Below, one piece after another: positions 14,200 through 35,495 of a DNA stretch of 64,000 nt; positions within the stretch are counted from its first letter, which is position 1, and every line of letters starts with the position of its first letter. The stretch comes from Marsupella aquatica (taxonomy: Eukaryota > Plantae > Marchantiophyta). The stretch is from the NCBI GenBank assembly GCA_973895155.1, contig OZ316896.1, forward strand, positions 10,776,695-10,840,694, given 5' to 3'. Under the pieces are notes generated by a model. It searched no databases. It worked only from the letters and a program-made list of their open reading frames with translations, and was not told where the DNA came from. Made by a program: the position numbers and the translations under genes.

Positions 14200-14223
14200 A
14201 ACCCCAATTTAAGGAAAACCGAA
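14200..14223 (+). repeat. Left terminal inverted repeat (preceded by TSD CCTA 14196-14199)
   Basis: aaccccaatttaaggaaaaccgaa; inverted match to 35472-35495. Confidence 0.9.
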
Positions 14224-14469
14224 CTTTGGAAATTCCGAAAATCACTAAATATTATTATTTTAATAAAAAGGGGGCGACATGACGCGTGGCTGCACGTGAA
14301 ACCCTGAAAATGACTGCAACGTCACATTTTAACCAATCCAACTTGACGGGACCAAGAGACATGCTCACGCGAATAATAATAATAATAGAGAAATAAATCT
14401 TTGAGATCCTTTATATATGATAACCAGTATATAAGGAGTTTACAAATAGTTTCTAGAACGACATACAAA

Positions 14470-15198
14470 TTAATCTGATCTCATGTTGACTATTATTTTG
14501 GAAGCGTCCAAAATTGGGCGTTTGTTAAATTGCTCTACTAGATATCTATCTCCATGCCTCTGAATCACAGGGTCTTCCCATAGAGTATGATTATAATCAT
14601 AATCTCTAAAAATAGATTTAACTGACCAATCTGGATAATCTCTTCCATTGGCAATGACAAGCGGCTCACAAGAGTTTGCTAGCTTGCTAAGATACGGAAT
14701 CAGCAAGTTAATCAGGAAACTATCGTCGACCGACCCAAAATATTTGGGCGGAAATAATGATCCAACAACAGGATCTAAACAAGCATGAAATGCATTGGAT
14801 TCGATAAGCATTATATTTTGCTGCAGATACGCCTTCGTATAAATTCAAACCTTCTCAAAACACTTCAAAAATATCCGCTTATTTGATGTCACCCCATCGC
14901 ATAAGTAACAATGAGACTGATCCCAAATATACTTAAATGAGGCCATTTCTATCACAGTAAAAATAGATGCTAAAATCTGATCTAAATGGTTCTTCCCAAG
15001 AGAGGACCAGATCCCTACATCGAAATTCTCAAAACAGAATCTCAAGAATTCGTGAAGATGAGGCCTTGGAAAAACGTATATATTCCCAATCCGAATTCCA
15101 GTTGAGACCGCCATCAGTTGGGAATGCAGTGCACTGTAACAGAGTAGATGCTCCACGTCTAAAACTAAGAGCCCATTTTCTCTGCTGCAATGAATCTC
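14470..15198 (-). pseudogene. FCP1-homology (NIF/HAD) domain, cassette 3
   Basis: LLVLDVEHLL, PRPHLHEFLRFCFENFDVGIWSS, YIWDQSHC, FLKCFEKV, NIMLIES and LFPPKYFG. Preceded by acceptor tctctatag, with no ATG. A single in-frame TGA at 14845-14847 joins the two ORFs. Confidence 0.85.
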
Positions 15199-15266
15199 CT
15201 ATAGAGAAACACAAGAAGATGCATGAGCCCGTATGGATGTAGTCACGCGAATGGTCGCGTCACATA

Positions 15267-15991
15267 TTACAGAGAAAACATCCTCTACACTCTGGCCATT
15301 GATAAGTGACGTCTGTTGAAGTGCTTGATAAGAACTTGATCCGCATGTCTCTACACGTACAGATGCTCCCATATATCCTCGTTCAGATCCCAATCTCGAT
15401 GTAGATTTCTAATCGACCAGATGGGATAATCAAACTTGTTAGCGAACGCAAGACAAAGCCCTGAATTTGATAGCTTTCGTAAATATGGAATGAGGTCATC
15501 CCTCAAAAAGACATCATCCAACGATCCTTGAAACGACTTAGCGAACAATAATCCGCATACAGCTGTCTGGCATGTATGGGAAGGACAGGCATCAATCTGG
15601 ATTATATTCTCTGGTCGATAATCTTGAAAATATCACGTAGTCTCTCGATAGATTTGAAGACAATAGTCTTATAATTTTTTTTCACATAACCAAGATTCCA
15701 GCAATGATCCCGCGTGAACACATATATCAGCTGCGACAGGTCGGTGCTCGACAACACTTCTGAAAGTATCTGATAAACCAGTTTATCGTCGAGAATAGAC
15801 CAGACCATCACATCAAAATGATCATAACAGAATTTTATAAGATCATGAAGATGCGGCCTCGAAACGACACATAGAGATCCGATACGAATTCCGGGTGTCG
15901 ACTTGAGCTGAGGAGTATATTTTGAAACAGAGCACAGGAAGTTTTCCAGTCCTAAAACTAGAAGTTTACGCGACCTGCTCCACTTAGACAC
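15267..15991 (-). pseudogene. FCP1-homology (NIF/HAD) domain, cassette 2
   Basis: RKLLVLGLENFL, RPHLHDLIKFC, FDVMVWS, VFKSIERL, then after a frameshift (~15620) NIIQIDACP...LIPYL. Preceded by acceptor tttacag, with no ATG. In-frame TAG at 15351-15353. Confidence 0.8.
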
Positions 15992-16116
15992 CTGTAAATG
16001 AACAATTCGATTCTCATATTATGCAATTGCAAACAACCACGCGACCCGGCGCGTCACTCCCAAAAGTTCAATTTCAATCAATTTATAAATAATAATTGAT
16101 AATAAACAATAAACGT

Positions 16117-16704
16117 TTACTTATTGGACTTATCCCGGGCTTCTATAGCACGGTCTTTTTTGGCAGATAAGTATTTCATAAATTCGTCAAACTTTTCTAA
16201 ATGGTCTTTATTCCCCTGATTACGAATGATCACGTTTCTCCTCCAAAGATTCGTCTTATCAATATAATCTTTCTCAAGATTTTCTTGAGAGAACATTGGA
16301 ATCCCATATCCACTAAGGAGCTCGCGGAATGTCAACTTGTCAATTGACATGTCACATAGATATGGATATAGTTTCTTTCTAAAAAATAGGTCATCATCGA
16401 GCCCAGAATATGCATCGGGATACATCGATGAATAGAAGTCATTAAGGCTCGTCTTATATGCAGCGTCATCGATAAGAATGACATTCTCGATGTTGTAATC
16501 TTTAATATCGGCGACAATGTTCGAGAGACATTTGACAAATAAAGGGATGTCATTATTATTCTTCCCAATAAGTCGAGTTGATTCTTGTCCCCATATAAAT
16601 TTAATACATTTCAAAACTTCGGGTCAAAGTATCAGCCTTACACAAGATAGAATATTCAGTTTGAACATGCACGACCAGATCGCAATGTCGTATAGATCTG
16701 CCAC
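16117..16704 (-). pseudogene. FCP1-homology (NIF/HAD) domain, cassette 1, N-terminus missing
   Basis: YDIAIWS...FIWGQE...FVKCLS...NVILIDDAAYKTSLN...YPDAYSG...LYPYL; in-frame TGA at 16624-16626. Confidence 0.8.
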
Positions 16705-16942
16705 CTGGGATTAGGCGCCATCTGTACCTGTGATTTTTGTGCTGCAGGGTTTGGAGAACGTACTAGAACGGTCTGTTTGTTTCTCGCCTCCGGACGATCA
16801 CCGGACTTCCGGACTGGTGCCTTCGATACTCGATCAGGGGGTTTTGGGATAGGCTCTTGTAAAACATTAAGAAATGAAAATAAGTTTATAACGCAAACGG
16901 TCGCGTGACTACAAAGAGAGATACTGAAATGAAGTGTATTAC

Positions 16943-17731
16943 CTGTACAAGACGGTCGTTCAGTGCTGGAATTCCACCAAAAATGTCAATCATAGCAGCA
17001 TGGATCCCGGTAACTAGGTTACTTGCGGACGTCAGCTTGCGGAAGTCCATGTCAAATAACGACAAGACTATCTCCCTACGGAATTTCTCAATTTAATCCG
17101 CGGCTAAATTAATTCCGTTTCCTTGACACAAGCACTTGGCGTATCTCAAGATAAACACACCACAACTATGGTCGTCACTCTGGTGAGGAATATCATTCCG
17201 ATATATCCGTTCCCAACCTGAGAGATCCAAGTTGACACCAGTTCTCCAGCCAATTTTGTCGGCGTAGTACTTCCCAACAATATCTAGCACCCCAGGATTT
17301 TGTCGATTATGAACTAGAGAATCTAGGTACTCCAGCCGTTTCTCCTTCGGATACAAGACTACCAATGACCAATGTTCTTTCACAGCATTGTGTACTGGAA
17401 AGACCAGTTTCTCGTATTCACTGATTTTTAGCGGAAACTCCTTTGTCCAAGCTACTCTCTCCTCGTCGAAAATGGTAGGATCCATGGAGAGAAGCTCAAA
17501 ATGGTGTGTTTGGAAGAATTTGACAAGGTCTAACTTTCCAACTCTATCGAGAATCAGTTCGAGAAAACTCAAATAAGCGTTAATTATATCATCGGTGAGC
17601 AACTTGCGCGGTCTCAGACACATCATATGTTTCCTCTGGATCGAGTGTTGTAAGAACTTGGTCAATAGCTCTTCCATATCCTTAGAAGGATCAAGGCATT
17701 GATCTATTCGACTAGCCAAATTTTCAAAAAA
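16943..17731 (-). pseudogene. Ulp1/C48 SUMO-protease domain (part of the multidomain gene)
   Basis: LRPRKLLTDDIINAYL, LVFPVH, EHWSLVV, EYLDSL and IPHQSDDHSCGVFIL show the His/Asp/Gln/Cys catalytic set intact. The C-terminal helix (IEKFRREIV) continues past an in-frame TAA at 17093-17095. Confidence 0.92.
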
Positions 17732-18759
17732 CTGCAAAAAATAGAGATTTCAGTACGCCTTCAAATAACGTACTGAGGTTGTAGCCTAAGGGTTGTAGCC
17801 TCAGAAAACAGAAACAATAACAGATCAATAATAAAATAATGACGTCTATAATAGAAACTTTAAGCTTATAGCTTGCGAATGACCTTTGGATTGGGTGGAT
17901 CCGGCCTTTTCGCAGCTGATCTCTTGGGTGCCTCAATCGCAACAACATCCTTCAGCCCTCCTCGAGACCGCAGTGATCGCTCCACCTGACCAGTTTGCGA
18001 AGGTTGGAGCGATGAGGCGGGAAGACCTTCAAATGGTTGTGGCATTTGATTCAAATATTCCACAATCTGGGAATCCGATTCCAAAATATCCGCTGCCACA
18101 ATTTCTGCGCGAGTCATCTCTGCAATATATCGGGGTCGAGACCACGAACCCGGTCGGGTCAAGTCAGCTGTTAGTCTCTTAACGACTTGAGCCGAGTCTG
18201 GTGCCAAAAACGTTCCCATGTCTTGCACTCGATTCTCGGAAAAGCGGACATTATTGATGATTGTCTCCATTCTGGATGCAGTGGCAGTCTTCTCCTCGGT
18301 AATCAAAAGACCCTTCCAATATTGCAAAGCAAGGACTGCTTGGACTCGGAGCTGCTCCAGTGAATATTTATTCCAATCATCCAACGAGACCGTACTTAAG
18401 GGTGGATCATTAAATTCAAACTTCGGGTGAAGAAAATAGTCTAATATTTTCTTCTTAACTGCAACTGAGGGTGAAGAAGGCTTCTTCAAATTCAGCCTTA
18501 TTTTTGGTAGATGTTGTGCCTCAGGATTAAGCGAAAGATCCTTGGCCCTCTCGGCCTCCTTCCTCGCTGCCTCCAGTCTTGCGGCTTCTTCTCTCTCCAG
18601 TCTTGTGGAATCGACCTTTTCCGCCTCCAACTTCTCTACCTCCACCCTCTTTGGTCTTGCGGTCTCGTCCGCCATCCTCTCGGCCAGCAGCCTCTCAGCC
18701 GCCACACTCTCCGCCTTGGCCCTATTTTCCTCTGTCACTAAAAGGACTCTCGCAGCCTC

Positions 18760-19460
18760 CGCTTTCTCAGCCTGGGCTTTCTCAGCCTCAACATTCTCGG
18801 CCTCTACTTTCTCCGCCTGGGCTTTCTCAGCCTGGGCTTTCTCAGCCTGGGCTTTCTGAGCCTGGGCTTTCTAAGCCTGGGCTTTCTCGGCCTCCGCTTT
18901 CTCAGCCTCCGCTTTCTCAGCCTGGGCTTTCTGAGCCTGGGCTTTCTCAGCCTCCGCTTTCTCAGCCTCCGCTTTCTGAGCCTGGGCTTTCTGAGCCTGG
19001 GCTTCCTCAGCCTCCGCTTTCTCAGCCTGGGCTTTCTCAGCCTCCGCTTTCTCAGCCTGGGCTTTCTCAGCCTGGGCTTTCTCAACCTGGGCTTTCTCAG
19101 CCTGGGCTTTCTCGGCATCCGCTTTCTCCGCCTGGGCTTTCTTAGCCTGGGCTTTCTCAGCCTGGGCTTTCTCCTTCTTCTTCGCGGCAGTTGCTTTTCT
19201 AGTTGTTGCCTTTTTCTTCTTAACCTCCTTCTTTTGAAGCTCCTCTTGTCGGGCCGCCTCTTGTCGGGACGCCTTCTCTTGCCGGCCGCCTCCTTCTTTT
19301 GAAGCTCCTCTTGCCGGGCCGCCTCCTGCCGGGCCGCCTCCTTCTTTTGAAATTCCTCTTGCCGGGCCGCCTCCTGCCGGGCCTCCTCCAGCCTGGCCTC
19401 CTCCTGTCGGGCCGCCTCCTCTCTGGCCTTCTCCTGCCGAGCCGCCTCCTCTCGGTCCAC
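18760..19460 (-). repeat. Coding tandem repeats: (EEAARQ)n then a 15-bp unit encoding (AEKAQ/AEKAE)n coiled coil
   Basis: gctttctcagcctgg / gctttctcagcctcc units on the + strand. They read as a charged helical repeat in the frame of the multidomain gene. One unit carries CAG>TAG at 18871-18873. Confidence 0.85.
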
Positions 19461-20303
19461 CTCATGTCAAGGCTCCTGTGTGGCCTCTTCATCAGAGTCC
19501 TCAACGTCCTCGGAACCCTCCATCTCCTCGTCCTCTTCATCAGCGTCCTCAGCGTCCTTCATCTCCTCTCCGTCACTCTCTTCATCTCCTCTATTGTCGG
19601 AATCTCCGACGTCGTTCTGCGTATCGGTCATCCACTCTGGATCTTGGTCATTGACATCCCCATCCGCATCACCTTCCGCGTCACCTTCCCTCTCACCATC
19701 CGCATCACCATTTCTCCCTGCATCCTCAACATTGAAGCCGCAGTCGACTTGATCTGAATAAAATCAGATCATTTGATAAGAATGACTCACGTGCATATTC
19801 GCGTGAAAAGAAATGTTATGAATGTCCACGCGCATGTTCGCGTGACGCAATAAAAAGTAAGAGGTTTCAAAAGTAACTTACCTTGGATTGGCCCACTAGG
19901 GTACTCCGTTGGTCGAATGTACAATCAATCGGAATCTTCAGAGAGTGCATACTCTTGCAATAATTGATTACAAATATTATCAGGGATATGTTGTTCGTGG
20001 AGGACATCCAAAACATCAGCCCTGAGAGCTGTTACGGATGGACGGTACTTCATTAATTTATCTATACATTTTTCTATACTAGCCCGTATTGGGTCAATCA
20101 ATGACAGCATTGTATCAATTGTCGCCGTGGTGTGTTGCAAGAAACAAGACAACTCCCTATGCGTTGCCACAGGGCAGTAATATTTTACATTGGATTCAGC
20201 ATCCTGTAAAAAAAGCCGAAATTAGTTCACAATATTAATTGAGAATATAATAATCTAAATAATCTTAAAATCAAAACCCCAAAATATAAATCTCAAAACT
20301 TAC

Positions 20304-20846
20304 CATTAAGCACTGGATCAAGTTCGTTCCCTCACCGAAGCATATAGCCCATTCCCCACATTGGACGAATTGACTAACAATACTTTCAAAGAATGGAAGT
20401 ATCTTTTCTGGGGAAGGTGTCGTGAACTCGCCACTCTCTTCAAAATTGGCTATCTTCTCAATCTGATATTTGGAGACCAATTGGAACTCGAGGGCTTGTG
20501 GATCGCCCATTGTGCTGAAGGCCAAGCTGTGAAAAGCGTAGGTTACAATAAGCTTCTTCTCCTTCGGTCGCTTCTAAATATGATGGCTATCGATAGCAAC
20601 GTAGTGTGTGTACTTCCCTAATTCTCGTTTGATTAAGTAAGACTCAACGGGAGAGGCTACAATAATAACCACATGGTGTGGTTTTGTCCCTATCTCGCTA
20701 GTAGCACGAAATAACCCCTCATAGAATGAGCAATTTGGCGGACGCAAATCTCCCATTGATGAGGGATCAAAATAAATCAAGCTCACAAAGTTCTTGTCTT
20801 TACGTATGATACAGTCTGCAAACCCAGCATTTTGTATATCCTGCAA
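20304..20846 (-). pseudogene. Degenerate beta-class N6A/N4C DNA methyltransferase-like domain (part of the multidomain gene)
   Basis: VSLIYFDPSS resembles catalytic motif IV (vdLi.tDPPY). Downstream KILPFFESIVSQFVQCGEWAICFGEGT resembles motifs X-I (KP..l...li...s..Gd.VlD.F.GsG), in beta-class order. Both motifs are degenerate. Confidence 0.4.
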
Positions 20847-21706
20847 GGATCACAATTTCAGCCTCTCACCGACCGGCCGCACTAGTTGGTTTCCTTGACT
20901 ATCAACTGATTTCTGTATTCCTTCGACCAACCTGTAGAATATAGGGTCGATCTCCTTCAACAAATTATCATTACTAATATTTACATTTAAGCACTTCTTC
21001 AGATAACCACTCAACGCATCTCTCAACTGCTTCAGCACCATCTTGTCGAGCTTAAAGCGATCAATCATTCCTTTGACCCGCAATTTCCGCGTTGAATCTG
21101 TCAGAATTTTCAGCTCCGTCCGGGTGGATGTTTCCCCGTTGATTTTACTCAATAATAAAATCTCAAACTCAACTTTCATCTTCTTCTTTATACAGAATTG
21201 CTCCAAACTCATGCTGGTCGTTGACAACACTGGAGCCTCAGAGGACTTCCTCGCCTTCCCAGATTTCACTTTGATGCTTCGGTTTTTGAGTATAGACAGT
21301 CTTCCGCTCAACATATATTCCGCTGCCTTTCAAAGAACCGAGTCTGAGCACCCTTGACAAGAACGGAATGTCATCTTCAAAAGATGATAAGCACACGGAT
21401 TATCCGCAATTTTGACGGCGTCCCTCTGTAAAATTCCGTTGTAAATTACAAGCTCTCCTGTCCTTGATAGTTTGTAGACCTCCATCCACTTCTTGAATGT
21501 TTTGTCCTCCATTGTAAAGAGAAACGGAGCCAATTCTCCAAATTTCATCATTTTGTTCTTCCCCATTTGAGCCCATGGGCAAACAAAACTCGTAGCTCTC
21601 ATAAATACCTGAAAAACAATGGAAACATGACAATTTAAGCTTGACGCGACCGTTTGCATGACAAAAGTTTATACGATAATGTGATCGAAGAGGGTTATTT
21701 ATATAC

Positions 21707-22507
21707 CTTCCAATTTGGATGATGATAATGTGATCCAGGCCGCCCAAATGAGTTCCAGATATTACGACACTGTCGTACAATGGTGAGAAACTGTCCTTCT
21801 TCCATTGATGTTTGATGACAATGGTTCAGAGCTTTCGATAATCCCATCAAATGAACATTATTGTCGTTGTTGAGCGTTGCCCAAAACATTACAGCTTCTA
21901 CAGTACCGCAAGCGTCTCGTACAACTTGGTTGACTTTGTCGTCCTCTCTCAGCAATTTGTACGCCATTATTGTGTGCTGGCCTCTGAGTATCCAAAAATG
22001 ACTGGTCATAATGTCCTCCTCCTTTGGCAATGAATCGTAGGGCGTCCCATTGTAGTCGGGATCTCTGTCGGCCTCCGACTGAACCCACTTCACAGGGACT
22101 AAAAAGCAGCATCGCTTCTCGAAGTTTATAGCCGAATGAGAGAGGAGTGAATTCTTTAGCCTATCTGTGTAATCCTGATTCCACTCTCGGCACTTGATGT
22201 GGTCCGGTGCAAGATGACAACGTGATGTCTCAACAAAAAATGACTTGCTGTTAAATATATTCACAACACTATATTCTTTGAGGAAAGAATCGAACAGAGC
22301 CCCAACATTTGCTGAGGTAATTACTTTCGGAAGATTCTCCGTCGAGTATACTTCAACCTTGCTCACTGGCGGGGCCTTACCCAAGCGAAATCCCTGGTTG
22401 AAAGGAACTCTCTGGAACTCAAGTACGTCCATAATGTATTGACAAATCAAATCTCCCGTTGATGCCTCTGGATCGGAAGGATATCCCACACTAGTAACCT
22501 TTTCCAA
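21707..22507 (-). pseudogene. ParB/Srx-like domain (N-terminal part of the multidomain gene)
   Basis: IKCREWNQDYTDRLKNSL...CFLVPV...FWILRGQHTIMAYKLL resembles the ParB-type R...V..L...(I/L)xGxHR/T..A signature. Confidence 0.65.
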
Positions 22508-22781
22508 GGCGTGCCTTGCACCTAGAAGATCATTGATTCTGGGCTGATTGAAGGTTACATATTGCGTTCAATCCAAACAAATGCTTATTTTGTCTTCCTG
22601 CTGGTCGTCGCTGACTAGCAGAACCAATCCCTCTGTACACTCTTTAACTTTCATGTTCTTCTCAAAGAAACACCCGAGAATTTTTTATCTCTCCAAAACT
22701 GTAGCTTTATCATTTCTTGCCACCACAAGACGGACAGCCCCATTGCGAACGACTATTCCAAAATCGGATATCTCAGTCGAT

Positions 22782-23288
22782 TCAAAGAGATGGATACTCT
22801 TTTTCATCTAACCAAAACCAAAGGTTCCTAAACGTGTCAAGTTCAGATCCTTCAAATCCACCCAGAATGTCCAGCGGTGGGAGAGTTCTGATGGATTCTG
22901 TAAATCCTAATGCTACACTCCGTGAAGTCAAATGCCTTCGAAGCGATTCATATCCTGGTCTATCAGTGAAGTCGTAAGCTACCAAGGTGACCGTCGCCCA
23001 AGTACTACTATAAGTAACTATGTGGCACCACTTCTTACTGACTGTTCGAATGGTGATCAAGTCCATGACCCGATTTTTAATCGTAGTATCCGACAAATTC
23101 CCAAGATAGTGGAAAAACTCTTTGACTAATGGCCAAATATATTTCTCGACAATATCGTCCGGAAGACCGGGTATCAGGTCTTCAGCTTGACTCCATATCA
23201 TGTTTCGGTTCATAACCTTTGCACGTGCAATGCGCTCCATCATCATTTGACGATGAGATTTTTGATTCATGTCAAAGGATTGCAGCAT
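22782..23288 (-). CDS. F-box-like protein 1 (168 aa, intronless, transposon cargo)
   Basis: LIPGLPDDIVEKYIWPLV...LITIRTVSKKWCHIV is a plant F-box signature with an insertion. The reading frame is open. Confidence 0.75.
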   Translation of the reverse strand: MLQSFDMNQKSHRQMMMERIARAKVMNRNMIWSQAEDLIPGLPDDIVEKYIWPLVKEFFHYLGNLSDTTIKNRVMDLITIRTVSKKWCHIVTYSSTWATVTLVAYDFTDRPGYESLRRHLTSRSVALGFTESIRTLPPLDILGGFEGSELDTFRNLWFWLDEKEYPSL

Positions 23289-23322
23289 AATATGGAAAAG
23301 ATTAAGAACAAGAACCTATCCA

Positions 23323-23889
23323 TTAAGAACTTGGACCACCAAGATTCTGAGAAAATCTACCAAACCTTTCGATTAGGACATCTCGTTCTTCCTCATCTAA
23401 ATTGTTATATTTGTTCGTAAACAATGCGATTTCGTCAGAAGTAGTAGTCCCAAGAACAGATATTTCTGGAAGCATAGAAATATCCTGTCGAATAACTCGA
23501 CAGACTGAGTCAAACTCCAACTCGTCAGTTTCGGGTATGTCGTAAAGAGCATCATTTGCGACATCGACAATCCGGTTTGCTTGTTTGAGGATAGCCCATA
23601 ACTTTGTATTTGTAACTAAAAAGTTCCACTTCTTGCTACAAGCTCCAAGCCGAATAAGGTCTCGGACCCTATCGATAACCAAATTGTTATCGAGGTGTCG
23701 ATATCCACGCAATCTTTCAATTGAAATAAAGTGTTCATAGAGTATTGGCCAAATGTTTGAAATGACCAAAACATCTGGTATTCCTCCAATGAGACTAGAG
23801 GAGGTTTCATCCAGCGTATCCCATATTGTTTTCTGTTTCTTTTCATGAGTTGAAAGGAAATCTTGAGCCTCATTCAAAAGTTGGCTCAT
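23323..23889 (-). CDS. F-box-like protein 2 (188 aa, intronless, transposon cargo)
   Basis: LIGGIPDVLVISNIWPIL...LIRLGACSKKWNFLV; paralogous to its neighbours. Confidence 0.75.
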   Translation of the reverse strand: MSQLLNEAQDFLSTHEKKQKTIWDTLDETSSSLIGGIPDVLVISNIWPILYEHFISIERLRGYRHLDNNLVIDRVRDLIRLGACSKKWNFLVTNTKLWAILKQANRIVDVANDALYDIPETDELEFDSVCRVIRQDISMLPEISVLGTTTSDEIALFTNKYNNLDEEERDVLIERFGRFSQNLGGPSS

Positions 23890-23954
23890 CCTGCTTTTAT
23901 CATATCACAAAACATTGTTAGAAGACATACGACGCGCTTGGTCACGTAAGTTAA

Positions 23955-24506
23955 CTAGAATTCCTTAAAAGCATAGATGTCACCCTCAAGGTATCCAACT
24001 TCGTGGCATCTGATTGTAAATTTCCATTTTTCAAGAGGGTGAAGAGCATCGTAAGTCTTTGTGAAGAGTTCCCTAAGATCTCTGGACATTGACCCCATGA
24101 ATTTAATTCTTGGGTATTTTTGGAAGAAACTTTGAACTGTCGATGAGAGAGACTCATTTCCGATCGGTTTAGTAGGATTTCCTGGGAAAGCCAAATCTAA
24201 TAAACTCAACTTGATTACACCCAGAAGATAGGTATTCCCAACAAGGTGACGCCATCTGCGACACACCGAAGATAGTCCTACAAACTCATCCAATTCCTTT
24301 ATTGAGAAATTTCCTGCATTAGCCGAGGAATTAAAAGTCTCCTGGATCCGAGGCCATATCAATTCCGCGACAATGAAATCTGGAAGTCCAGGTAGTAGTG
24401 TTTCAATAAATACAGAATATCCCGCCAGTAGACCATCTTGGCTTCTGTCCAAAACGTCAAATATTGGGCATAGATATCTGAAGCTCTTCAGACCAGGTTT
24501 GCCCAT
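23955..24506 (-). CDS. F-box-like protein 3 (183 aa, intronless, transposon cargo)
   Basis: LLPGLPDFIVAELIWPRI...VGLSSVCRRWRHLV; paralogous to its neighbours. Confidence 0.75.
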   Translation of the reverse strand: MGKPGLKSFRYLCPIFDVLDRSQDGLLAGYSVFIETLLPGLPDFIVAELIWPRIQETFNSSANAGNFSIKELDEFVGLSSVCRRWRHLVGNTYLLGVIKLSLLDLAFPGNPTKPIGNESLSSTVQSFFQKYPRIKFMGSMSRDLRELFTKTYDALHPLEKWKFTIRCHEVGYLEGDIYAFKEF

Positions 24507-24639
24507 GACTCTTTTCAGCCAAATGATATATCCTAGAGATTATTTTCACGCGACTGGTCGCGTCTACAAATCAGAATGCATAAACAATTCTTTGAGAGAC
24601 TAATTTTTTCGGGTCACAACGTGAAAAATCATAAATGTT

Positions 24640-25505
24640 GCTTCGTCCTCTAACAGAACCAGTCAATGAGAGAGCAACCTCAGACGCGACTGGTCGCGTC
24701 AACTGAACCTAAACAACTATATCCACTGAACCTTCTGTGGAGATTTGGATATGGTACGCGCTCAGTAAATCTATCCAGTTTCCTTCTCACACGCGACTGG
24801 TCGCGTCAACTGGTCCTAAAAGGAACCTTACCTCCTCTAACAGAACCAGTCAATGAGAGATCTACATCAGACGCGACTAGTCACGTCAACTGGTCCTAAA
24901 AGGAACCTTACCTCCTCTAACAGAACCAGTCAATGAGAGAGCTACCTCAGACGCGACTGGTCGCGTCAACTGAACCTAAACAGCTATATCCATTGAACCT
25001 TCCTTGTGGAGATTTGGATATGGTACGCGCTCAGTAAATCTATCCAGTTTCCTTCTCACAGCGACTAGTCGCGTCAACTCGTCTTAAAAGGAACCTTATC
25101 TCCTCTAACAGAACCAGTCAATGAGAGAGCTACCTCAGACACGACTGGTCGCATCAACTGAACCTAAAGAACTATATCCACTAAACCTTCCTTGTGGAGA
25201 TTTGGATATGGTACGCGTTCAGTAAATCTATCCTGTTTCCTTCTGACACGCGACTGGTCGCGTCAACTGGTCCTAAAAGGAACCTTACCTCCTCTAACAA
25301 AACCAGTCAATGAGAGAGCTACCTGACGCGACTGGTCGCGTCAACTAAACCTAAACAACTATATCCACTGAACCTTCCTTGTGGAGATTTGGATATGGTA
25401 CGCGCTCAGTAAAATCTATCCAGTTTCCTTCTCACACGCGACTGGTCGCGTCAACTGGTCCTAAAAGGAACCTCACAATATTTTCACGTGACTGGTCGCG
25501 TCAAC
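24640..25505. repeat. Internal tandem array (~187-bp unit plus an ~80-bp partial) rich in ACGCGACTGGTCGCGT palindromes
   Basis: cctctaacagaaccagtcaatgag recurs at about 24647, 24834, 24914, 25102 and 25291, with two palindromes per full unit. The array lies upstream of the F-box/ParB cluster. Confidence 0.92.
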
Positions 25506-28044
25506 AGCTCAAACAACTTTTGGACAATAGGATAATACAGTGATACAACTGTGATTACTGACCCGTACGGACAAGGAAATCCGAGTAAGCATGATTTCAT
25601 TCATTTGTATTCATTCATGAACTTTACAATAATTCAGATGTTTGAGCTCTGTCATTGTGAAACTATTATATATCAGAAGTTTAGAGAATGATCCAGTTAA
25701 GATGATTCAATTTAGCAGTCTACTGGTTGTATTCGTCAATTAAAGGATTCAGTGTAATGAGATTCACATAACATGAGAGTTTATATGATTAAATTCACAG
25801 CGTGCAAGTTTGTAATGACTTACTTAAGACGATTTAGGTTGTATTTTAATTAGTGAGTTTGTATGATTCACACATATTTGAGTTTACAAACAAACCGCAT
25901 TATGAAAACTGTGCTTAACAATCAAGAGAAATTTTAGCAAACCACAATCAACACCAGCAGAAAATGTAGAAATTACACCTGAATTCTGAAAAATTGATGT
26001 AATCGTTTGAGAGATTGACATCCAAGCACTTGAAGACCTTGCTGCGGCATTCCAGAAAGTAAATATAAGATTGAAGATATTAATATGCTAAGCAACAACA
26101 ACACAGCTTCTATACTTCTATACATAGAGCTTCGCTGCCACCAATTGAATAACATGTGCTTAATGCTAAGGAGCTCATTATGTCGAGTTAAAAAGACTCT
26201 TTCAAAAGTACAATCAAAGCTGTGGATAGGCAAACTGAGCATGAATAAAAGCGCACTAAACCTGAAGATTCAAAGAGATGAAACAAACCTGAATGCTGAA
26301 TGGAAGGAGCTAAAACAAGCTGCCAAAAAGTAGTTCGAGCTGCTGAAACACGTTGATCGAGCTGATATGAGCTTAAAATTGGCTGACACGAGCTGATACA
26401 AGCACTCCCAAAAAGCTAGCTGCAACGAACTAGCAAACTAGAAGTGAATACGAGTTGTAAATGCGAGCTGCAATGCGCCAACGAGCTCCTGGTCGAAACG
26501 ATGGACAACTACTAAGAGCTGCAACGCGCCGACAAGCACCTGACCACAACGAACAAGCTGCAACGACAAAAATGAAATCCAGGGCAGGAGCAAGAGCGAG
26601 AGCGACGAGAGTGAGAGAGAGAGCGACGAGAGCAGGCACGCGAAAGTCTAGGGAGCAAGAAACAACAACAATGAACAATGAACTCGAGACCGTGGGCGCC
26701 GACACTAAGAAAGGACTAATTAGGGTATTGTTTTAGCATAACCCTAATAACAGCCTAGCGACAGGAAGGTTCCAAATGATCTTCGTACACTCCACCATCG
26801 ACTGAACAAACTATGCAATCGTGAAAAAAAGATTACCAGATTCCTTTTGATTTGCCGTACTAAAGGAGATTTCTATTTGATCGCCAATTTGAAATTTAAA
26901 CCGGTAATTATGCAACTGCGAAAGATTGTTAGTGGGGACCCCCGGATCCGTATCTTCACTATATCTGCCAATTCAAATCCAAAATGTGAACGAATGACAA
27001 CTTTCTCACGATTGTTCCATCACGTAGTGGAGGCGAACTTCAAAATCATTCCATTTTGGTAGTGGAGACCGTCGGATCCGGATCCGTACTCCACTCTCTA
27101 TCTTGCCAATTCAAACCCTTACTCTAAACAACGTAAAACGATTCTCACGGTCGGGGAGAACCGATATTCAAAATCAATCTTATACAATGATTCTCACGAC
27201 TGGAGACTCAACCAATTTTCAAAATCAAAATCGAGTCCAGATGAACACATCCTCCATGGAGTCAATAGACTGATCTCATTGCTCACGGATCATTCTTAAT
27301 TTTCAATTTCTCCTGACCAAGATACTAGGCTCTCAGCGGAGGCTGATCCAAGGCACATTTGAGGTGGAGCAGATTGGATCATTCAACTATTCCAGTCGGA
27401 GGCGGAGCTCATTCAAGCAACGATGGCGCAGTTCTTGTAGTATCACCTTCAATCTTGGGGAGAGCACATCCGATCAAGCAGGAGAGTTGCGACGAAGCGA
27501 GACGACAAACATTTAGAACCTCCATAGTCTGCCTCATTCATCAAAGCATTCTAGCGGACCAACAAAGAGCGGCTATTCTGAAATCACAGTCTGGTCAAGG
27601 ATTTTGATCTTGATACGATCAACAAGTTGTCATTCTCTGGTGGTGGGATTCGATCATGATACTCAAGGAAATTGGAGTTCGAAGGAGGAGGCTTAGTTGG
27701 CTGGGACGAGGAGGCTACGCTGGAAGGAAGAGGCTTGGCTGGGAGGAGGGTTTCCGCCAACATCGGAGGGTTGCCACCAACATTTGCTCAGACCACACGC
27801 AACTGAATAACTTGTAAGTATCAATCAGCATTAATTCCGCAATAAATGAGGAGAGTAGTTGCCTTAAATCACGCATTCAATGCATGAATTGAGTCAATGA
27901 AGTTATGGTCCAATTTCTCACTCCGATTTTGATCAATCCGTGTTTCAAGTCCAATACAGAAGCAATGTATCAAAAGTACTAGTAGAGGATCCGAATGAAT
28001 TCTCTAGTCTAAAATTGTATGGCGTACGCGTATAGTTGTCCGTA

Positions 28045-29000
28045 CGTTTTGCTATTGTTTATTGTAGTCGACGACCTAGCAAAACGAAACATAATCGAGG
28101 TCCATTTTTGAGATCTTCCTAATCTCAACTTGTTAGTAGGATGACCTGTTTTTTGGTTACACATGTAGTTTGTCACGTGCACAGTCGCTTGAACCAATTT
28201 ATCTCGTGTCTTTTGATATTGTTTATTGTAGTCGACAGCCTAGCGAATTGGCCAGCAATCTATTTTAAAACCAACGTCTTCGTTTCATCACGCGCACGGT
28301 CGCGTTAATTTTTTAGAGGTCAGCGAAAGCTCTGCACTCTTAGACGTAATCGCCCTTTATTTCTCAGATCTTCCTGATCTCAACTTGTTAGTAGGATGAC
28401 CTATTTTTTGGTTACACATGTAGTTCATCATGCGCACAGTCGCGTGAACCAATTTATCTCGTGTCTTTTGATATTGTTTATTGTAGTCGAAAGCCTAGCG
28501 AATTGGCCAGAAATCTATTTTGAAACCGAGTTCTGATTCACGCAACCGGTCGCGTTAATGTTTTAGAGGTCAGCAAAAGCTCTGCACTCTTAGACGTAAT
28601 CGCCCTTTATTTCTCAGATCTGCCTTATCTCAACTTGTTAGTAGGATGACCTGTTTTTTGGGTTACACATGTAGTTCATCAGGCGCACAGTCGCGTGAAC
28701 CAATTTATTTTGATATTGTTTATTGTAGTCGACTGCCCAGCGAATTGGCCAGAAATATATTTTAAAACCGAGGTCTTCGTTTCATCACGCGCCCAGTCGC
28801 GTTAATGTTTTAGAGGTCAGCGAAAGCTCTGCACTCTTAGACATAATCGCCCTTTATTTCTCAGATCTGCCTGATCTCAACTTGTTAGTAGGATGACCTG
28901 TTTTTGGTTACACATGTAGTTCATCACGCGCACAGTCGCGTGAACCAATTTATCTCAGGTCTTTTTGATATTGTTTATTGTAGTCGACAGCCTAGCGAAT
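28045..29000. repeat. Internal tandem array (~250-bp unit, ~4 copies) with ACGCG-N6-CGCGT motifs
   Basis: tctcaacttgttagtaggatgacc occurs at about 28123, 28377, 28628 and 28875. Motif copies such as acgcgcacagtcgcgt and acgcgcacggtcgcgt are in each unit. Confidence 0.92.
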
Positions 29001-29205
29001 TGTCAGTCAGAGGAATCTTGATTTTTCCTTGATTGCAAAAATGGTTACATCCATCCCAAAGGACTTCGGATGTGGAATCCATATCCACTAGCACTATCCA
29101 GGAATTTAAGCTACACAATATCTATAACAAGTTCTAACTTGAACTACTCTTGAATCTGTAGTTCTAATCTTCGACTACTCAAAATATTTGTTGACTTCGA
29201 TCGAG

Positions 29206-29748
29206 TCAGTCATTCCAAGATGAAGGCATCCACTCATCGGTGTCTGGTGTGGATTCCCTTGAATCCAAAAATTCTTCCTTTGCCCAAGTCCTAACGTCCA
29301 TAGATTTTCTCGGCTTTCTCTTTCTGTAATACAAATCAGAATCTTCGTTCATCTCTAATTGCCTTTTCTTCGGTGCGTCCACTTTCTTGGCCTCCTTCTT
29401 GACTGTCTTAGCGTCTGCTGCTGCTTCCCCCAAAATGGATTCGACGCATGCTCTGGCCTTCAACTTTTCCCCCCTCGAAATAGATTCCACGAGGGCTTTG
29501 CCCTTTAACTTCTCCCCTGATGCCATCTTTGTAGTCATCTCTGTCGGATTGGTCTCCATCTGATCTTCCATCAACAAATGTGGCGAACAATGTCGTCTCT
29601 CACAAAACATTTGACCCGATTTAGTCATCGTAAACATTATATTACATCGCTGACACATTCTGTAAGGAATACCATGAATTTGATACGTCAAACCTTCTAA
29701 ATTGTCCGTCGGAACATCCTCATTCTTCGAGCTCAGCGGAGTAGTCAT
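29206..29748 (-). CDS. Small Cys4 (putative zinc-binding) protein with basic NLS-like patch, 180 aa, transposon cargo
   Basis: Intact ATG-to-stop ORF with CQRC-x13-CERRHC, YYRKRKPRK and an acidic tail. A TATAAA lies on the minus strand about 130 bp upstream (~29878-29883). The ORF is divergent from the transposase. Confidence 0.6.
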   Translation of the reverse strand: MTTPLSSKNEDVPTDNLEGLTYQIHGIPYRMCQRCNIMFTMTKSGQMFCERRHCSPHLLMEDQMETNPTEMTTKMASGEKLKGKALVESISRGEKLKARACVESILGEAAADAKTVKKEAKKVDAPKKRQLEMNEDSDLYYRKRKPRKSMDVRTWAKEEFLDSRESTPDTDEWMPSSWND

Positions 29749-30064
29749 CGCCCTTCAAACAAGAGATGCTGACCGAGACTAAGAATTGGAAATGAGAGAG
29801 CTGATGTGCGAATAGATTATCCAGTAGCCAGAAAGTGGAATGCGTGGGGGAATGAGCAATAGGGATCATCTCAATGCTTTATACTGTTTAGTCTCCACTA
29901 GTCATTGTACATAGTGGTTTCTAGAAGAGGGTGCGCGTTTGACTGGCGCGTATTAGAATTGGCGGGAAGTTCAGTTGTCCTCTAATTATGGCTTTAATTT
30001 CACGTTTGGCGACCGCCCCGGGAATACTGATTGCTAGTGAAGTACTGAGATTTCTTATGAAGGT

Positions 30065-30800
30065 CAGTAGTTACTAACTGTCCGGTGTCCACTCATTGGT
30101 AAACTGGTATTGTCCACTCATTTTTCCTGAGTGGAGTTGAAATGATTGTTCGGTAATCAATTGTAGTCGTTCTCATTCACTTGAAATGACTGATGGACCA
30201 TGCATTATCTTTACCGGTATGTGTGATGCCTTTAGATCCGTAATTGTATCTTCCTGTCTCACGCGCAATCGTATCTTACTTATGAAGTACCAATTACGAG
30301 CTAGAGTTTGGGCCTAGCCTTCTAGCTTCTACGTCGTAGACCTTGTACCCTCTGACTAAGGTCACGCGACATACCTTTAGATCCGTAATTGTATCTTCCT
30401 GTCTCACGTGCAATCGTATCTTACTTATGAAGTACCAAGTACGAGCTAGAGTTTGGGCCTAGCCTTCTAGCTTCTACGTCGTAGACCCTGTTATCCCTAC
30501 ACCCTCTGACTAAGGTCACGCGACTAGTCGCGTGCAAGGCAGTGCATAATTGACTATATTCTGCCTACTTATTGACGGTTGTGACAGGACAATGCAGTTC
30601 ACAGACATTTTACTGGCGCTTATTAGCACTACTGTCCTCAGTAGTTACTGACTGTCCACTCATTTGTTCTAAGTGGATGTGAAATGATTGATCGTAATCG
30701 ATTGTGGTCATTCTCATTCATTTGACATGACTGATGGACCATGCATAGTCTGTTGCCGGTATGTGTGGTACCTCTAGGGTCACGCGACCAGTCGCGTGCA
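30065..30800. repeat. Direct duplications in the divergent promoter region upstream of the transposase
   Basis: An ~145-bp unit occurs twice (30229-30370, 30374-30525). 30065-30225 resembles 30640-30765. The perfect palindrome cacgcgactagtcgcgtg is at 30517-30534 and a near-perfect copy at 30781-30798. Confidence 0.85.
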
Positions 30801-30924
30801 GCGCAGTGCATTAACTACATTCTGTTTATTGACCGACGTGATAGGACAGTGCAGTGAAATTGACGGACGTGACAGGACTGTACGCTTACAGTGATATTCT
30901 CTGATGTGCAGGATCATAATTATT

Positions 30925-33900
30925 ATGGTGACATCGACAGTCTGGATCAGGGAAGGCGGACAAGTTATTATAGGCATACGTGAGAAATAGGTTGGAAAAG
31001 GTCGCGTGATAAGTCTTGATCCTTCTAGGGTTTGTCACAATGTTCCTCTTGGGGCGGACAGAGTTATTCTTCTATTGGAGGAAGTTTTTGACGAGACCAT
31101 TCTATGCGAAGATGGCGAACTTTTGAAGGACATGATTGGGGGTTACCTTGTATGGGAAAGGAATCAGCTTTTTCGAGCTCCCATGGAATTGGAGGATGTG
31201 TTTGGCACTGTTGGTGATGATCAGGATCCAGTCAATCAAAATTCTGATGGGAACAACCATAATGAGAGTCGGTCTGGTGTGGAAGTAGTTTTACCAAAGG
31301 CCTTGTGGATGGGCATGCCTGTAAAGGTGGTGGATGAGAACAAGTTGATTTTTGCAGTGGCAACTATACATGTTCTAGATCCTATAGTGAAGCTTGGGGA
31401 TGTCACCCTTGGGAATACACATGTGGGAATTCTGATCAACGATTTTGTCGAGGGAGCTACCATAGATCATCTGAAGCATAGAGATTGCTTAAAAGCTTGG
31501 TCGATGGACCAACTCATTGCCAAGGATGGCAACTTGTTGTCTTTCCACAACATCAGGCAAGCTGTGGGAGGGAACACATCTCCAACAAGTGGCAAGCGGT
31601 CCTACATCCATAAAAGTAGGAAAAGAAAGAGTCCATCTTCCCAGACATCTAGAAGAGACACATCTTTGGCACGTCAAGATGTGTTGTTGATAAACACTAA
31701 GGACTGTTGTAGTGAACATTGTTGCCAATATTTGGACCGCAACTTGGCTATGGCAATTAGGCAAAAGTGGTGGTCAAAATCTTTTGCGGAGCGCAAGGAG
31801 GAGGAAATCAAGGCTATTAAAAATACAATACACTTGGGTACTTGAGAAAGGATTCTAGCAGTGGAGGGCAAAGTATTGTGCTTGGAGGCATGGAGAATCA
31901 TTCATTCAAGAGGAAAGACTCAATTTTATGCCTTGAAGAAGACTGTGATGGCTGGAATGAACATAGGTACCCATGGTAATGCTGGAAAAAGGCGTATGTC
32001 CGAGAAAGTATCTCAAGCGTTCATGTTAATGAAAGAGATTATTGAGGAGGCAGCTGATCATCATCCAGCCAAGTTGAGAACCATGGCAGATAATACAAGG
32101 ATGGTTTTGAGGGAATTGCCAACAAATCTTACTTGGGAGAATATTAGAAACAGGGTTAATGTTGTCAACCAGGAGGCTGGTCTTCCTCCAATTTCCCAAC
32201 CCACCTTGGGTCATCTACATCAGATGTATTTCAGGGAGTTCTCACGTCACAAAAAGGGCACCAACTTTTCAAAGTGTACAACTTGTAGTGAGTTGCTTCA
32301 ACGGAAAGCAAACCTTACAGGAGCTAAGGAAGAGTTAGAGGGCCTAAGGCGTGACGAGGAGGAACATCACCAAGACCACACACAACAAAGAATGTGCTAT
32401 CATACCTGGAGATATGAGTCCATCCATCGTCCAAAGGAAGTGTTATGCCTTATTCATGATAAGATGGATCATTCAAAGACAGCCTTCCAAGAATGCCCTT
32501 CAATCCTAAGCATGTGGATGGTGCCCAAAAGTTCCCAATTACTGTCACTGGTATCCTTACTCATGGTCATGGTCCCAAGGCCATAGCCCAATATCATGTT
32601 GGAGTGTGGCCAGGTGATGTCAACATCACTATTGGGTCAATTGATTCAATACTAAGGATGTTGGAAAACCCAAATCCAATGATCAAATCACTTGTGGAGG
32701 GGCCAGACTCGACAAGTCTTTTTAAAGACCTCCTTTTTGGGAGAGCAGATATCTTGGAGGCAAGTGTCCTTAGAGCATTTGAGGATGACATTACCTACAT
32801 CTCAAGCCTAGGTACTTTACTCACAATCCTTTAATTTATTATTATTTAATAATATAAGCTCACACACACACTGACACTCTACTTTGTGTAGTTGTTGCTC
32901 CTCCTAGCCAAGGTTTCATTAATAGGGTTTAAACCCTAAACCCTAAATTGGGGTTTAGAGTCTGACTAGGGTTTTATTTAAAAGCATTCTGAGATTGTTA
33001 CATTGTGATGCAGTACCTGAGGCACCAAAGTTCAGGCCCCTTCCACGAGTATTGAAGCTACAACTGGATAATTGTGCCTCAGACAACAAGAACAGATATA
33101 TGATGGCTTATTTGTCATTGTTGACGGCAAGGGAGGTGTTTGAAGAGGTTCATCTTGGTTTTATGGTGGTTGGGCATACTCATCTCGGGGGTTTCACTTC
33201 CACAAAAATGGCATATCACGTGCGACGAAGTATAGGGTCATTTTATTGGTTCAAAGGGAAGACTTAAGAATTTTCTGAGAAGAACAATAGGGTCTTTTAA
33301 ATCCAATTTTGAGACTTATAAGAACATTAGGGTCCTTATAACCAAAATTTTGGAATATTCCAAGAATATTCCAACTTTATAGGGGTTGAAAAAATAAAAA
33401 AAATTATTATATTTTAGGGGGTCCGAGGCCTAAAAACGTCGCAAGTGATAGGGAGGCATCCGTATAGTGAGACCCCTGAGATACTCATGAGGACGTTGAC
33501 GGTATGTTCGGGCATTTTTCAGAGTCTATGATGCATAACCCCACATACTCATTGCCTGAGTTAATGTCCTTGTTCATGAGAGCAAGGGCACCCAATGCAG
33601 TCCCACATTTTCTACAGGAGGTCCCAGATTTCAAAAACTACTTAGCTCCATTCATGTTGAAGGGCCCTGAGGCATTGGTGGGGCATTTAAAACCCAGGCT
33701 GTTTAGGTTCTATGTTCGTCATGATAGTATGCCATGCTTCCAATACAAAATGAAGTCAACTGATCAGGGATGGTTACCCAAGGAAGGTATTGAAATGTGG
33801 TCATGGAAAGATGACAAAAGTCCTCACATCCCAATTGGGGTGCCCAAACGGCTACCAATGATGGAGTTGAAAATGCTTCCTGAAGTGCTGACAGGGTTGA

Positions 33901-34607
33901 AGAAGCATGTGTCATTCTTTGAGTTTATTCTAAAGCAAACAAAAGAGGAAGAACCAAAGCGACATTGGACAACTCTCATCAATTATTGGAATGACATTGT
34001 AGATACTCTACAGGGTGAGCAGGTGCAATATGAACCTGAAGGTGCACACAACTTGGAATACGGGTTTTGGCCTTTATCAATATGGAGAGAGCACGTTCCA
34101 CCAGAATATCGAAATGTGGCATGTGAGTTGGAGGCAACAGTGGATTATGTGGGACCAGCAAAAGATAAACCTCCTGAGAGTTTTAACCCTAGGGTTGATG
34201 TTGTGAAGGGCTGTTATGTGTTGGTACGGCCGGACGACTCAGACCTGGATGTTTATCCTGTCCATATGGGGTTAGTTGTTACAGATGTGGTAGAAGGACC
34301 AGTGAATGAACAAAACCTTCTTACTCATGTATGTGGCGTTGAGTGGTTTAGACCATTTATGGCAAAGAAGCAACGTGGTCAATCAGACTGGCAGCCAAGA
34401 GAGCGGTGGGCAGATTCTTGGGATAAGAAATGGGAACGTGATCCATCTCCCATATACAAGGAAGCTGAGACAATAGATGTTTCCTCTGCCTTGTGGTGTT
34501 TCAAAGCACGCAAAGGACCAGTGACAGGGCTGGTAGGAATTCCAAAGAATGTTGTTGTCGAGGCAAGAGACTATCTCTTGACATGCATAGCAAGTGACAA
34601 ATCCTAG
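30925..34607 (+). pseudogene. DDD transposase (Sola-like / DUF7869-type), disrupted
   Basis: Stitched from ORFs 31006-31845, 31861-32586, 32493-32834, 32995-33267 and 33504-34607. Catalytic-type motifs are LCLIHDKMDHSKT, VTGILTHG, LQLDNCASDNKN and VGHTH|EDVDGMF. Cys/His motifs are CCSEHCC, LCLEAW and FSKCTTC. ATG is at 30925. Lesions: TAG 30988, TGA 31843, a 1-bp deletion near 32485 (KTAF-PRMP) and the MITE at 33184-33480. A GT-AG intron runs 32812-33013, possibly containing a 21-nt mini-exon at 32892-32912. Confidence 0.85.
33184..33480. mobile_element. 297-bp MITE with 8-bp TSD (ATACTCAT), hAT/P-type TSD length
   Basis: TSD atactcat at 33176-33183 and 33481-33488. TIRs ctcgggggtttcact / agtgagacccctgag match 13/15. 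A subterminal inverted pair tatcacgtgcgacg / cgtcgcaagtgata is present. The interior is AT-rich and non-coding. Removing the MITE restores VGHTHEDVDGMF. Confidence 0.92.
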
Positions 34608-34699
34608 ACAGTAATGAAGCATGTAGTTTAGCATACAGTTTAAAAGGCAACTCAGAATTGTAGTAGCCAGAGAACTCAAGTTTAGACAAGTCTTATCGT

Positions 34700-35277
34700 C
34701 TAAGTTAGTTAGTTGGTTAGTTTATTTAAGATATAATATTAGTTAGTGGGGCCTTAGTTTGGTGATATTAAGGCATGATATTATTGACATTCAAATGAAT
34801 GTCCAGTAGACATTGTAATATACAACAATCCTATTAATAAATAATAATTATAGTTACACCCTCAAGTGAACTCAACTTTCAATGATTTCTGATTTTATAT
34901 GGTTCCATGCCTGATTGAGTCAAAGCAATAGAAACTAACTAATTAAAGGGTGATACTATAATTGTAGGTCACGCACCTTGGTGCATGTCAATCTTTTTTG
35001 TATTCAACCCTATAGTAATTAAATAGACAAGTTAGTTAGTTGGTTAGTTTATTTAAGATATAATATTAGTTAGTGGGCCCTTAGTTTGGTGATATTAAGG
35101 CATGATATTATTGACATTCAAATGAATGTCCAGTAGACATTGTAATATACAACAATCCTATTAATTGTTGTAAATAAACTAATTAATTAAAGGGTGGTAC
35201 TTACTATGATTGTAGGTCACGCACCCTGGTGCGTGTCAATCTTTTTTGTATTCAACCCTATAATAATTAAATAGACA
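34700..35277. repeat. Subterminal direct repeat (~325-bp period, 2 copies) near the right TIR
   Basis: agttagttagttggttagtttatttaagatataatattag...atcctattaa and gtaggtcacgcacc...aaatagacaa each occur twice. Confidence 0.88.
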
Positions 35278-35471
35278 ATTGAAACAATGAATGATAGTTT
35301 AATTAAGGATTTGTGTATGGATCAAGAGGTACTTGATGTCATTTAGTGATGCATTGTTATAAAGATCTTGCAACAAAACATTTGAAGTTTTTGACTATCC
35401 CACCAAATGTTAAAGAGGTTGATCATTCATTAACTAATAATATTTAGATAAAATTGAAATTAATCTAATAC

Positions 35472-35495
35472 TTCAGTATTCCTTAAATTGGGGTT
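35472..35495 (-). repeat. Right terminal inverted repeat (followed by TSD CCTA 35496-35499)
   Basis: ttcagtattccttaaattggggtt; reverse complement aaccccaatttaaggaatactgaa. Confidence 0.9.

Follow-up and report, generated by a model that had tools for sequence, protein, structure and literature searches.

A gapped palindrome in the non-coding niches of a giant Sola-like transposon of Marsupella aquatica, a predicted binding site for its ParB-like accessory protein

Why would a transposon carry some thirty copies of one gapped palindrome, placed between and within its genes? The question is raised by a 64,000-nt stretch of the genome of the liverwort Marsupella aquatica (GenBank GCA_973895155.1, contig OZ316896.1, forward-strand positions 10,776,695 to 10,840,694; hereafter the window, with positions counted from its first letter). 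It holds an element of 21,296 bp, bounded by inverted repeats at 14200 and 35495 and with CCTA on each side, in which the motif ACGCG-N6-CGCGT recurs. An initial annotation had suggested that a protein encoded by the element recognises its own element through this motif. Here we propose that the palindrome marks the non-coding niches of the element and that a ParB-like accessory protein would bind it, keeping the accessory genes free of silencing methylation, a reading to which we give a probability of about one half.

Number, geometry and placement of the palindrome

Exact copies of the motif number 15 in the window, all of them within 15245-30797, and none of 100 shuffles yielded any. When one mismatch is allowed, 24 copies lie between the terminal inverted repeats (TIRs) and none beyond them; with two mismatches there are 30 inside the element and 2 outside (40026 and 61307), the chance expectation for the whole window being 3.9 ± 2.0. 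The enrichment over background, which we ran within the window, gave 15 exact copies inside the element and none in the 42.7 kb of flank. In this sense, the count of about 30 copies, every coordinate given for them by the initial annotation and their absence beyond the TIRs are all confirmed, since the two outer matches are at chance level. One of the 30, at 14272, overlaps the copy at 14282 and is probably a chance match, and the motif at 34971 departs from the consensus arms at three positions. With exact arms and spacers of 0 to 20 nt, matches were found at spacer 6 only. Also, once the arrays were masked, an unbiased scan of gapped palindromes with 5-bp arms ranked ACGCG-N6-CGCGT first in the element, with 7 copies, ranks 2 to 4 being shifted forms of it. 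Chance, a simple-repeat origin and an artefact of CpG richness were ruled out by the spacer and shuffle controls.

The description of conserved arms around a variable spacer needs some refinement. Only half of the copies are exact, and of 22 mismatches in the arms, 18 are C>T or G>A. The spacer letters do differ at a fixed length, but they are biased: when 16 non-redundant sites are all oriented by the better of their two halves, they read [A/C][A/C]-Y-R-G-T (G in 13 of 16, T in 14 of 16), with TC before the site and [C/G]A after it. This bias of spacer and flanks suggests a site nearer to an imperfect palindrome of 18-20 bp with a strong ACGCGAC half, which is the single strong half in most sites. 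Because of duplications, of which four local ones carry the motif, the roughly 30 copies represent only about 13-16 independent placements.

All 31 listed sites are non-coding in the predicted gene model. In the gene-dense block 14470-24506 all seven sites fall in gaps, which make up 6.3% of positions (P = 4e-9, or 6e-8 when six independent placements are counted, the two sites of one intron being taken once). Three introns had been reported to hold the motif; the figure is corrected here to six sites in five of the seven predicted introns, at distances of 30-77 nt (donor) and 34-74 nt (acceptor) from the splice sites. The intron with the site at 21644 is supported by the homologs of the preceding ParB-like exon: 12 of them reach its end (19 aligned), and in all 12 the similarity is lost immediately beyond the same W-K-V position. 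P0037, a homolog of the following exon, ends at the next donor. Family majority letters restore motif arms at 16895, 19792 and 21658, and the intron segment 21636-21666 is tandemly duplicated in other family copies. The two tandem arrays amplify the motif as had been described, with 10 copies in array 1 (24684-25501) and 7 in array 2 (28175-28941). Fixed spacing, non-coding placement and absence outside the element support well the earlier idea of an element-specific site for a dimeric protein, and the motif is very probably a selected protein-binding site, as predicted from these patterns.

A candidate binder and a CpG footprint

The most attractive candidate binder is encoded within the element, opposite to the transposase. 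We found that the AlphaFold model of exon 1 of this accessory gene (predicted local distance difference test, pLDDT, 72.6, with a core above 90) retrieves ParB/Srx-fold proteins in all of its best eight hits in a structure search of 48,161 representatives (PadC, Z 8.6, root-mean-square deviation 2.9, 98 aligned; KorB, Z 8.3). Foldseek agrees with this fold (best E 2.6e-3), and the structural matches comprise ParB, Noc, PadC, KorB and sulfiredoxin. The accessory protein is thus modelled as carrying a ParB/Srx-fold domain, and the element-encoded ParB-like protein that had been anticipated is borne out by predicted structure. By sequence, the exon obtained 26 matches among 1.84 billion representatives, at least two of which (P0005 and P0026) are unrelated repeat proteins. 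Neither the window protein nor its homologs gave ParB or methyltransferase matches in Pfam, NCBIfam, PHROGs or PDB sequence searches, tblastn against phages returned noise only, and no longer homologs of the ParB exon appeared at E 0.001, which is weak evidence. The ESM Atlas held no usable match for P0037; for another homolog, P0016, 28 of 30 matches were unnamed clusters and two were clusters with ParB_N in 18% of members.

The end of exon 2 resembles by eye a permuted amino-methyltransferase. Its single-sequence model reaches a pLDDT of 34, and local methyltransferase alignments, none of them significant, coincide with the region where motif I would be expected. An active writer of N4-methylcytosine or N6-methyladenine as the cause of the CpG pattern described next was set aside, as no PPY-type motif stands at the candidate position in the window or in P0037.

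With motif bases masked, the observed/expected ratio of CpG (CpG O/E) is 0.81 (589 observed) for 14200-31100 and 0.29 (51) for 31101-35495, the flanks having 0.43 and 0.58. The non-coding parts of 14200-31100 retain CpG too (0.87 and 0.82). The best change point, 31150, lies about 350 bp beyond the last exact motif, at the start of the transposase. The same contrast between accessory and transposase sides is seen in NCG codons (64/359 versus 5/170) and in C|G codon junctions (92/270 versus 16/111), NIF2 being excluded from both. CpG retention over 17 kb with intact motifs, collapsing at the transposase end, is new here and, on base composition, fits a long-term, domain-wide protection of the motif-bearing part from methylation.

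The most likely explanation is that the ParB-like accessory protein would grip each palindrome as a dimer, while its attached domains (a SUMO protease and degenerate methyltransferase-like and phosphatase-like modules) would oppose host silencing. Introns and gene gaps would be where sites arose, coding sequence being unable to accommodate them, and local duplication would have multiplied them. As each site has four CpGs, we propose that methylation likely blocks or erodes it, which would provide an on/off switch. In the window copy the ParB-like protein has been lost, and decay at CG and CHG is under way. That the binder is the element's own ParB-like protein is a prediction we consider fairly probable, and for anti-silencing as the effect of binding we regard the odds as evenly balanced.

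The element, its family and its other genes

The element looks, by its sequence, like a giant Sola-1 DNA transposon. It has a target-site duplication (TSD) of 4 bp, TIRs with termini like those of Sola1-1_Ec32 and a transposase with a triad of aspartates (DDD), of which the motifs HDKMD, QLDNC and GHTH..EDVD were recognised by eye in the DUF7869 pieces. Sola elements are defined by a 4-bp TSD (PMC10741241; here and below, statements on cited papers refer to the portions of their text that were available). Three lesions disrupt the transposase: a stop, a frameshift and about 300 bp of inserted DNA. The insert (33184-33487) interrupts the gene between GHTH and EDVD and, with its short inverted ends and 8-bp duplication, looks like a miniature inverted-repeat transposable element. 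Telomere-like AAACCCT units lie within a transposase intron (32900-32960). No longer homologs of the transposase exon were found at E 0.001, again weak evidence.

In contigs of related runs, the summed depth at the left end rises abruptly, in X1 from 525 to 3726 and in X2 from 210 to 1450, and four contigs with unlike flanks end at 14200. X2 contigs about 1% from the window have depths of 430-520, and relatives with 80-90% identity have 13-50; contig depth is not copy number, and these values are read only as a young multi-copy family with older relatives. In related organisms, then, this seems to be a young, multi-copy family, of which the window holds a decayed member, given that majority letters differ at three of its stops. 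Among the 80 of 691 differences from relatives with the best support, 46 are A>G or T>C. In 44 of these (two without a clear majority were omitted) the lost C stood in CG (22), CHG (18) or CHH (4) contexts, for which 830, 791 and 2867 positions were available. Methylation of both CG and CHG is typical of plants, and the losses accordingly point to a probable land-plant host.

The accessory genes lie on the strand opposite to the transposase, as three packed open reading frames (ORFs) followed by a long gene modelled with seven introns, all predicted (Table 1). The F-box-like ORFs and the ParB-like gene are separated by about 30 nt or overlap shortly, which is unusually compact for a plant locus. 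From exon 1 through the NIF-like domains, the long gene may encode a single polyprotein, a candidate gene model only, and at the junction 17871-17732 the window copy has no GT donor. The SUMO protease looks, from its residues, like the sole catalytically intact module. Since plant-type introns occupy positions shared with 38-50% identical homologs and with 80-90% identical relatives, the accessory cassette has long resided in intron-bearing genomes.

Table 1. Coordinates of the features of the element in the window
Feature	Positions	Strand	Remarks
Left 4-bp TSD, CCTA	14196..14199	.	Right copy 35496-35499
Left TIR, AACCC terminus	14200..14268	+	First 17 nt perfect, about 70 nt imperfect
Motif near left end	14282..14297	.	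1 mismatch
Three NIF/FCP1-like phosphatase-domain repeats, broken	14470..16856	-	PF03031 E 4e-12, 7e-08, third by eye; two readable DxDxT degenerate (DVEHL, GLENF)
Predicted 92-nt GT-AG intron, exact motif at 15245	15199..15290	-	In-frame junction; divergent relative aligns both sides, differs across 15214-15284
Predicted intron (acceptor uncertain) or gene gap, exact motif at 16039	15975..16120	-	In frame only via farther acceptor
Predicted 86-nt intron, motif at 16891	16857..16942	-	Family majority letters: canonical acceptor and perfect arm
Ulp1/SENP SUMO-protease domain	17093..17731	-	PF02902 E 9e-16; SENP1 alignment E 1.9e-13; His, Asp, Gln, Cys in place
Acidic stretch and 15-bp (AQAEK) repeat exon	17866..19753	-	Stops and frameshift
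Predicted 128-nt GT-AG intron, two motifs (19789, 19828)	19754..19881	-	Perfect arm at 19792 in family majority
ParB-like gene exon 2: helical region, then methyltransferase-like stretch (DPSS, FGEG, by eye)	20304..21608	-	Three stops; intact homolog P0037, 50% identical
98-nt GT-AG intron, motif at 21644	21609..21706	-	Position conserved in homologs
ParB-like gene exon 1: predicted ParB/Srx-fold domain, GQHT replacing GxxR P-motif	21707..22807	-	Two stops
Three tightly packed ORFs, weak F-box similarity	22782..24506	-	Below Pfam cut-off
Motifs in or near the packed ORFs: 23932 in an inter-ORF gap of <30 nt, 24548 immediately upstream of the group	22782..24506	-	
Tandem array 1, 80- and 188-bp periods	24606..25505	.	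10 motifs
Tandem array 2, unit of ~250 bp, two sites per unit	28047..29002	.	7 motifs
Small ORF, four cysteines and basic stretch	29206..29748	-	No family found
Two exact motifs 264 bp apart (30518, 30782)	30518..30797	.	Local duplication upstream of transposase
DUF7869 (Sola-like, D-D-D) transposase	30991..34607	+	PF25273 E 1.6e-20, 1e-10, 6e-4, three pieces; CpG-depleted
Two decayed motifs near right end	34971..35234	.	3 and 2 C>T/G>A changes; local duplication
Right TIR, GGGTT terminus	35426..35495	-	

Between the two arrays, 2.5 kb of the element (25520-28040) are without motif or recognised ORF, with a CpG O/E of 0.87, and may hold promoters or a decayed gene. The element is inserted in another repeat, rich in ACCTAAG units (14040-14199 and 35496-35560), and this flank is multi-copy in related runs. 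Farther out, a separate tandem array with 70-95-bp units (37452-38203) repeats TGAGTCATGA, possibly as the binding-site array of another element, and part of a host gene, encoding a bifunctional nuclease domain (PF02577, E 2.5e-12), lies at 56411-56857.

Competing explanations and comparison with known systems

Several observations weigh against protection of the accessory genes by the ParB-like protein. The P-motif is GQHT or GQHS, with no arginine, in every family member that covers the site; as the GxxR arginine is needed for nucleotide binding in ParB folds (10.1101/2025.10.10.680097), a clamp driven by cytidine triphosphate is doubtful. Exon 2, where the helix-turn-helix and the C-terminal dimerisation region would mostly sit, has no profile match. 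Against a 34-sequence profile of beta-class methyltransferases its hidden Markov model score was below those of shuffles, and HHalign against methyltransferases scored 19.5, beaten by 1 of 40 shuffles (both with a query carrying one extra residue). CpG O/E does not rise near the motifs, being 0.72 within 150 bp and then 0.89, 0.82 and 0.81 with distance, and, since the boundary fits the transposase start as closely as the last motif, the contrast could also arise from two modules of unlike history. The window copy is itself now deaminating, with 40 of 44 listed C losses in CG or CHG. Additionally, the gene model, a prediction with boundaries set by reading frame, splice signals and homologs, was drawn with the motif positions known. 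The arginine loss need not mean a loss of function, since a phage ParB-like partner activates a DNA-modifying enzyme even with its nucleoside triphosphate residues mutated (PMC13229309). A bolder version takes ParB-parS as a load-and-spread machine, which would load at intron and gap sites and spread over 17 kb, the SUMO protease and decoy domains repelling CG methylation and the transposase being left methylated as a brake. Such loading and sliding is attractive for a flat 17-kb domain and is weakened by the missing arginine; we consider this version unlikely.

Other proteins could bind the motif. Transposases can act as sequence-specific activators of their cognate copies (10.64898/2026.08.24.746577), and the transposase or a spliced derivative might use the motif for end synapsis or for self-activation, like Spm TnpA or the AtMu1 transposase. 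Sites do occur 82 bp inside the left end, at about 260 bp from the right one and directly ahead of the transposase; however, most are 1-17 kb from the ends, within the accessory gene, the two right-end sites are among the most decayed, and the transposase gene is CpG-depleted and without motifs, which makes this binder quite improbable. Host transcription factors that bind CGCG boxes include CAMTA and FHY3/FAR1. The motif might be a paired site for such a factor, which the element would use as an enhancer or a CpG-protecting mark, and the CGCG in each half together with the intronic and upstream placement suits enhancers. This is hardly to be expected given the strict inverted geometry at one spacing and the 42.7 kb of flank, which includes at least one host gene fragment and has no exact or one-mismatch copy (window scan only).

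A further reading keeps the ParB-like protein on the sites but lets it work as KorB does, regulating itself or repressing the accessory genes; the CpG contrast would then reflect only the joining of a cassette to a transposase that is older and methylated. Among the structural matches KorB ranks second, its control of plasmid genes is long-range (10.1101/2025.10.10.680097), accessory cassettes move between algal transposon families (10.1101/2025.02.11.637652), and the CpG level is flat with distance from the sites. Against a joining speak the introns shared with relatives at both levels of identity, which place the cassette in intron-bearing genomes for long, and the CpG retained in non-coding DNA and at the left end as well, so that we see little likelihood in it. 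The four-cysteine protein, whose ORF stands between array 2 and the sites at 30518 and 30782, has cysteine pairs, a basic stretch and motifs on both sides of its ORF, but no family, structure or DNA-binding evidence was found for it (its homologs were not searched), and it is a very improbable binder. Binding and protection by the ParB-like protein is the reading we prefer.

In bacteria, parS sites are 16 bp long. The element resembles ParB-parS, KorB, Noc and PadC systems in its modelled ParB/Srx fold and in a palindromic 16-bp core present in multiple copies, and differs from ParB-parS in the replaced GxxR arginine and in a eukaryotic, intron-containing gene; no ParA was found among the ORFs scanned. 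ParB-linked methyltransferases of phage origin are known in algae and chytrids (PMC4738411), and the available text of 10.64898/2026.05.21.726589 has no mention of ParB. In an unrelated phage-like contig, AT-rich and holding a terminase-like ORF (L086 in G001, 602-3203), ACGCGACWGGTCGCGT occurs in six exact copies, several of them between ORFs; the fragment gave no ParB_N or N6_N4_Mtase match, its first 3 kb have no DNA similarity to the window, and its copies are probably due to convergence.

VANDAL elements of Arabidopsis are Mutator-type transposons. The parallel drawn earlier with VANDAL and its VANC protein stands in that a short motif occurs in introns, gene gaps and terminal regions and is multiplied by tandem repeats (PMC5735166, PMC10398659), and is otherwise one of analogy. 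VANC motifs are non-palindromic words of 8-9 bp (PMC5735166, PMC10398659), and VANC-related CG loss is local, whereas CpG retention here is flat over 17 kb. Mutator TSDs have 7-12 bp (PMC10741241), versus 4 bp and a DUF7869 transposase here, and a scan of 24 ORFs reported no VANC-like domain. VANDAL/VANC is the only system shown to bind and de-silence its own transposon (10.1101/2025.02.11.637652). If our reading is true, the Marsupella element would represent a second, unrelated and bacterially derived anti-silencing system in plants, and possibly a tool for targeted de-silencing.

Closer relatives in design are giant transposons of algae. Plavaka PAG3 of Bostrychia and other red algae is a giant DNA transposon with an N-terminal ParB-like domain, in which tandem arrays of inverted repeats adjoin the ParB-like gene and self-binding was proposed (10.1101/2025.02.11.637652). 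An N-terminal ParB-like domain, here modelled, and arrays of inverted-repeat units are both found in the Marsupella element. Unlike it, PAG3 belongs to the EnSpm superfamily, fuses ParB to a putative 2-oxoglutarate oxygenase and is described in the available text with arrays only, without intronic sites or CpG footprint (10.1101/2025.02.11.637652). Sola1-1_Ec32 of Ectocarpus is nearer still, with 21,549 bp versus 21,296 bp, AACCG-CGGTT termini versus AACCC-GGGTT, a 4-bp TSD that tends to end in A, as CCTA does here, and an accessory gene that runs opposite to the transposase and begins with a ParB-like domain, for which its authors propose self-binding and self-modification, citing Iyer et al. 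2011 for similar proteins in green-algal transposons (PMC12477816). Its second domain is named an N4C/N6A methyltransferase, whereas here it is a candidate without a PPY-type motif, and the available text contains no "palindrom" and names no site (PMC12477816). Compared by description only, the Marsupella element adds SUMO-protease, NIF-like and F-box-like modules.

We found no report of the motif or of a ParB-bearing Sola element in land plants, in searches that took in few subscription papers and not Repbase. For ParB-bearing giant transposons self-binding has been proposed without a site sequence or footprint (PMC12477816, 10.1101/2025.02.11.637652); here the candidate site is resolved to single bases, its intron placement is statistically clear, the sharp CpG boundary is an indirect sign of long-term protection, and a family that appears young and multi-copy in related organisms is open to direct binding and methylation tests. 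The design itself is already proposed in print for Ectocarpus Sola1-1 and red-algal Plavaka, and new here are the land-plant host, the dispersal of sites in introns, the added SUMO-protease and phosphatase-like modules and the CpG footprint.

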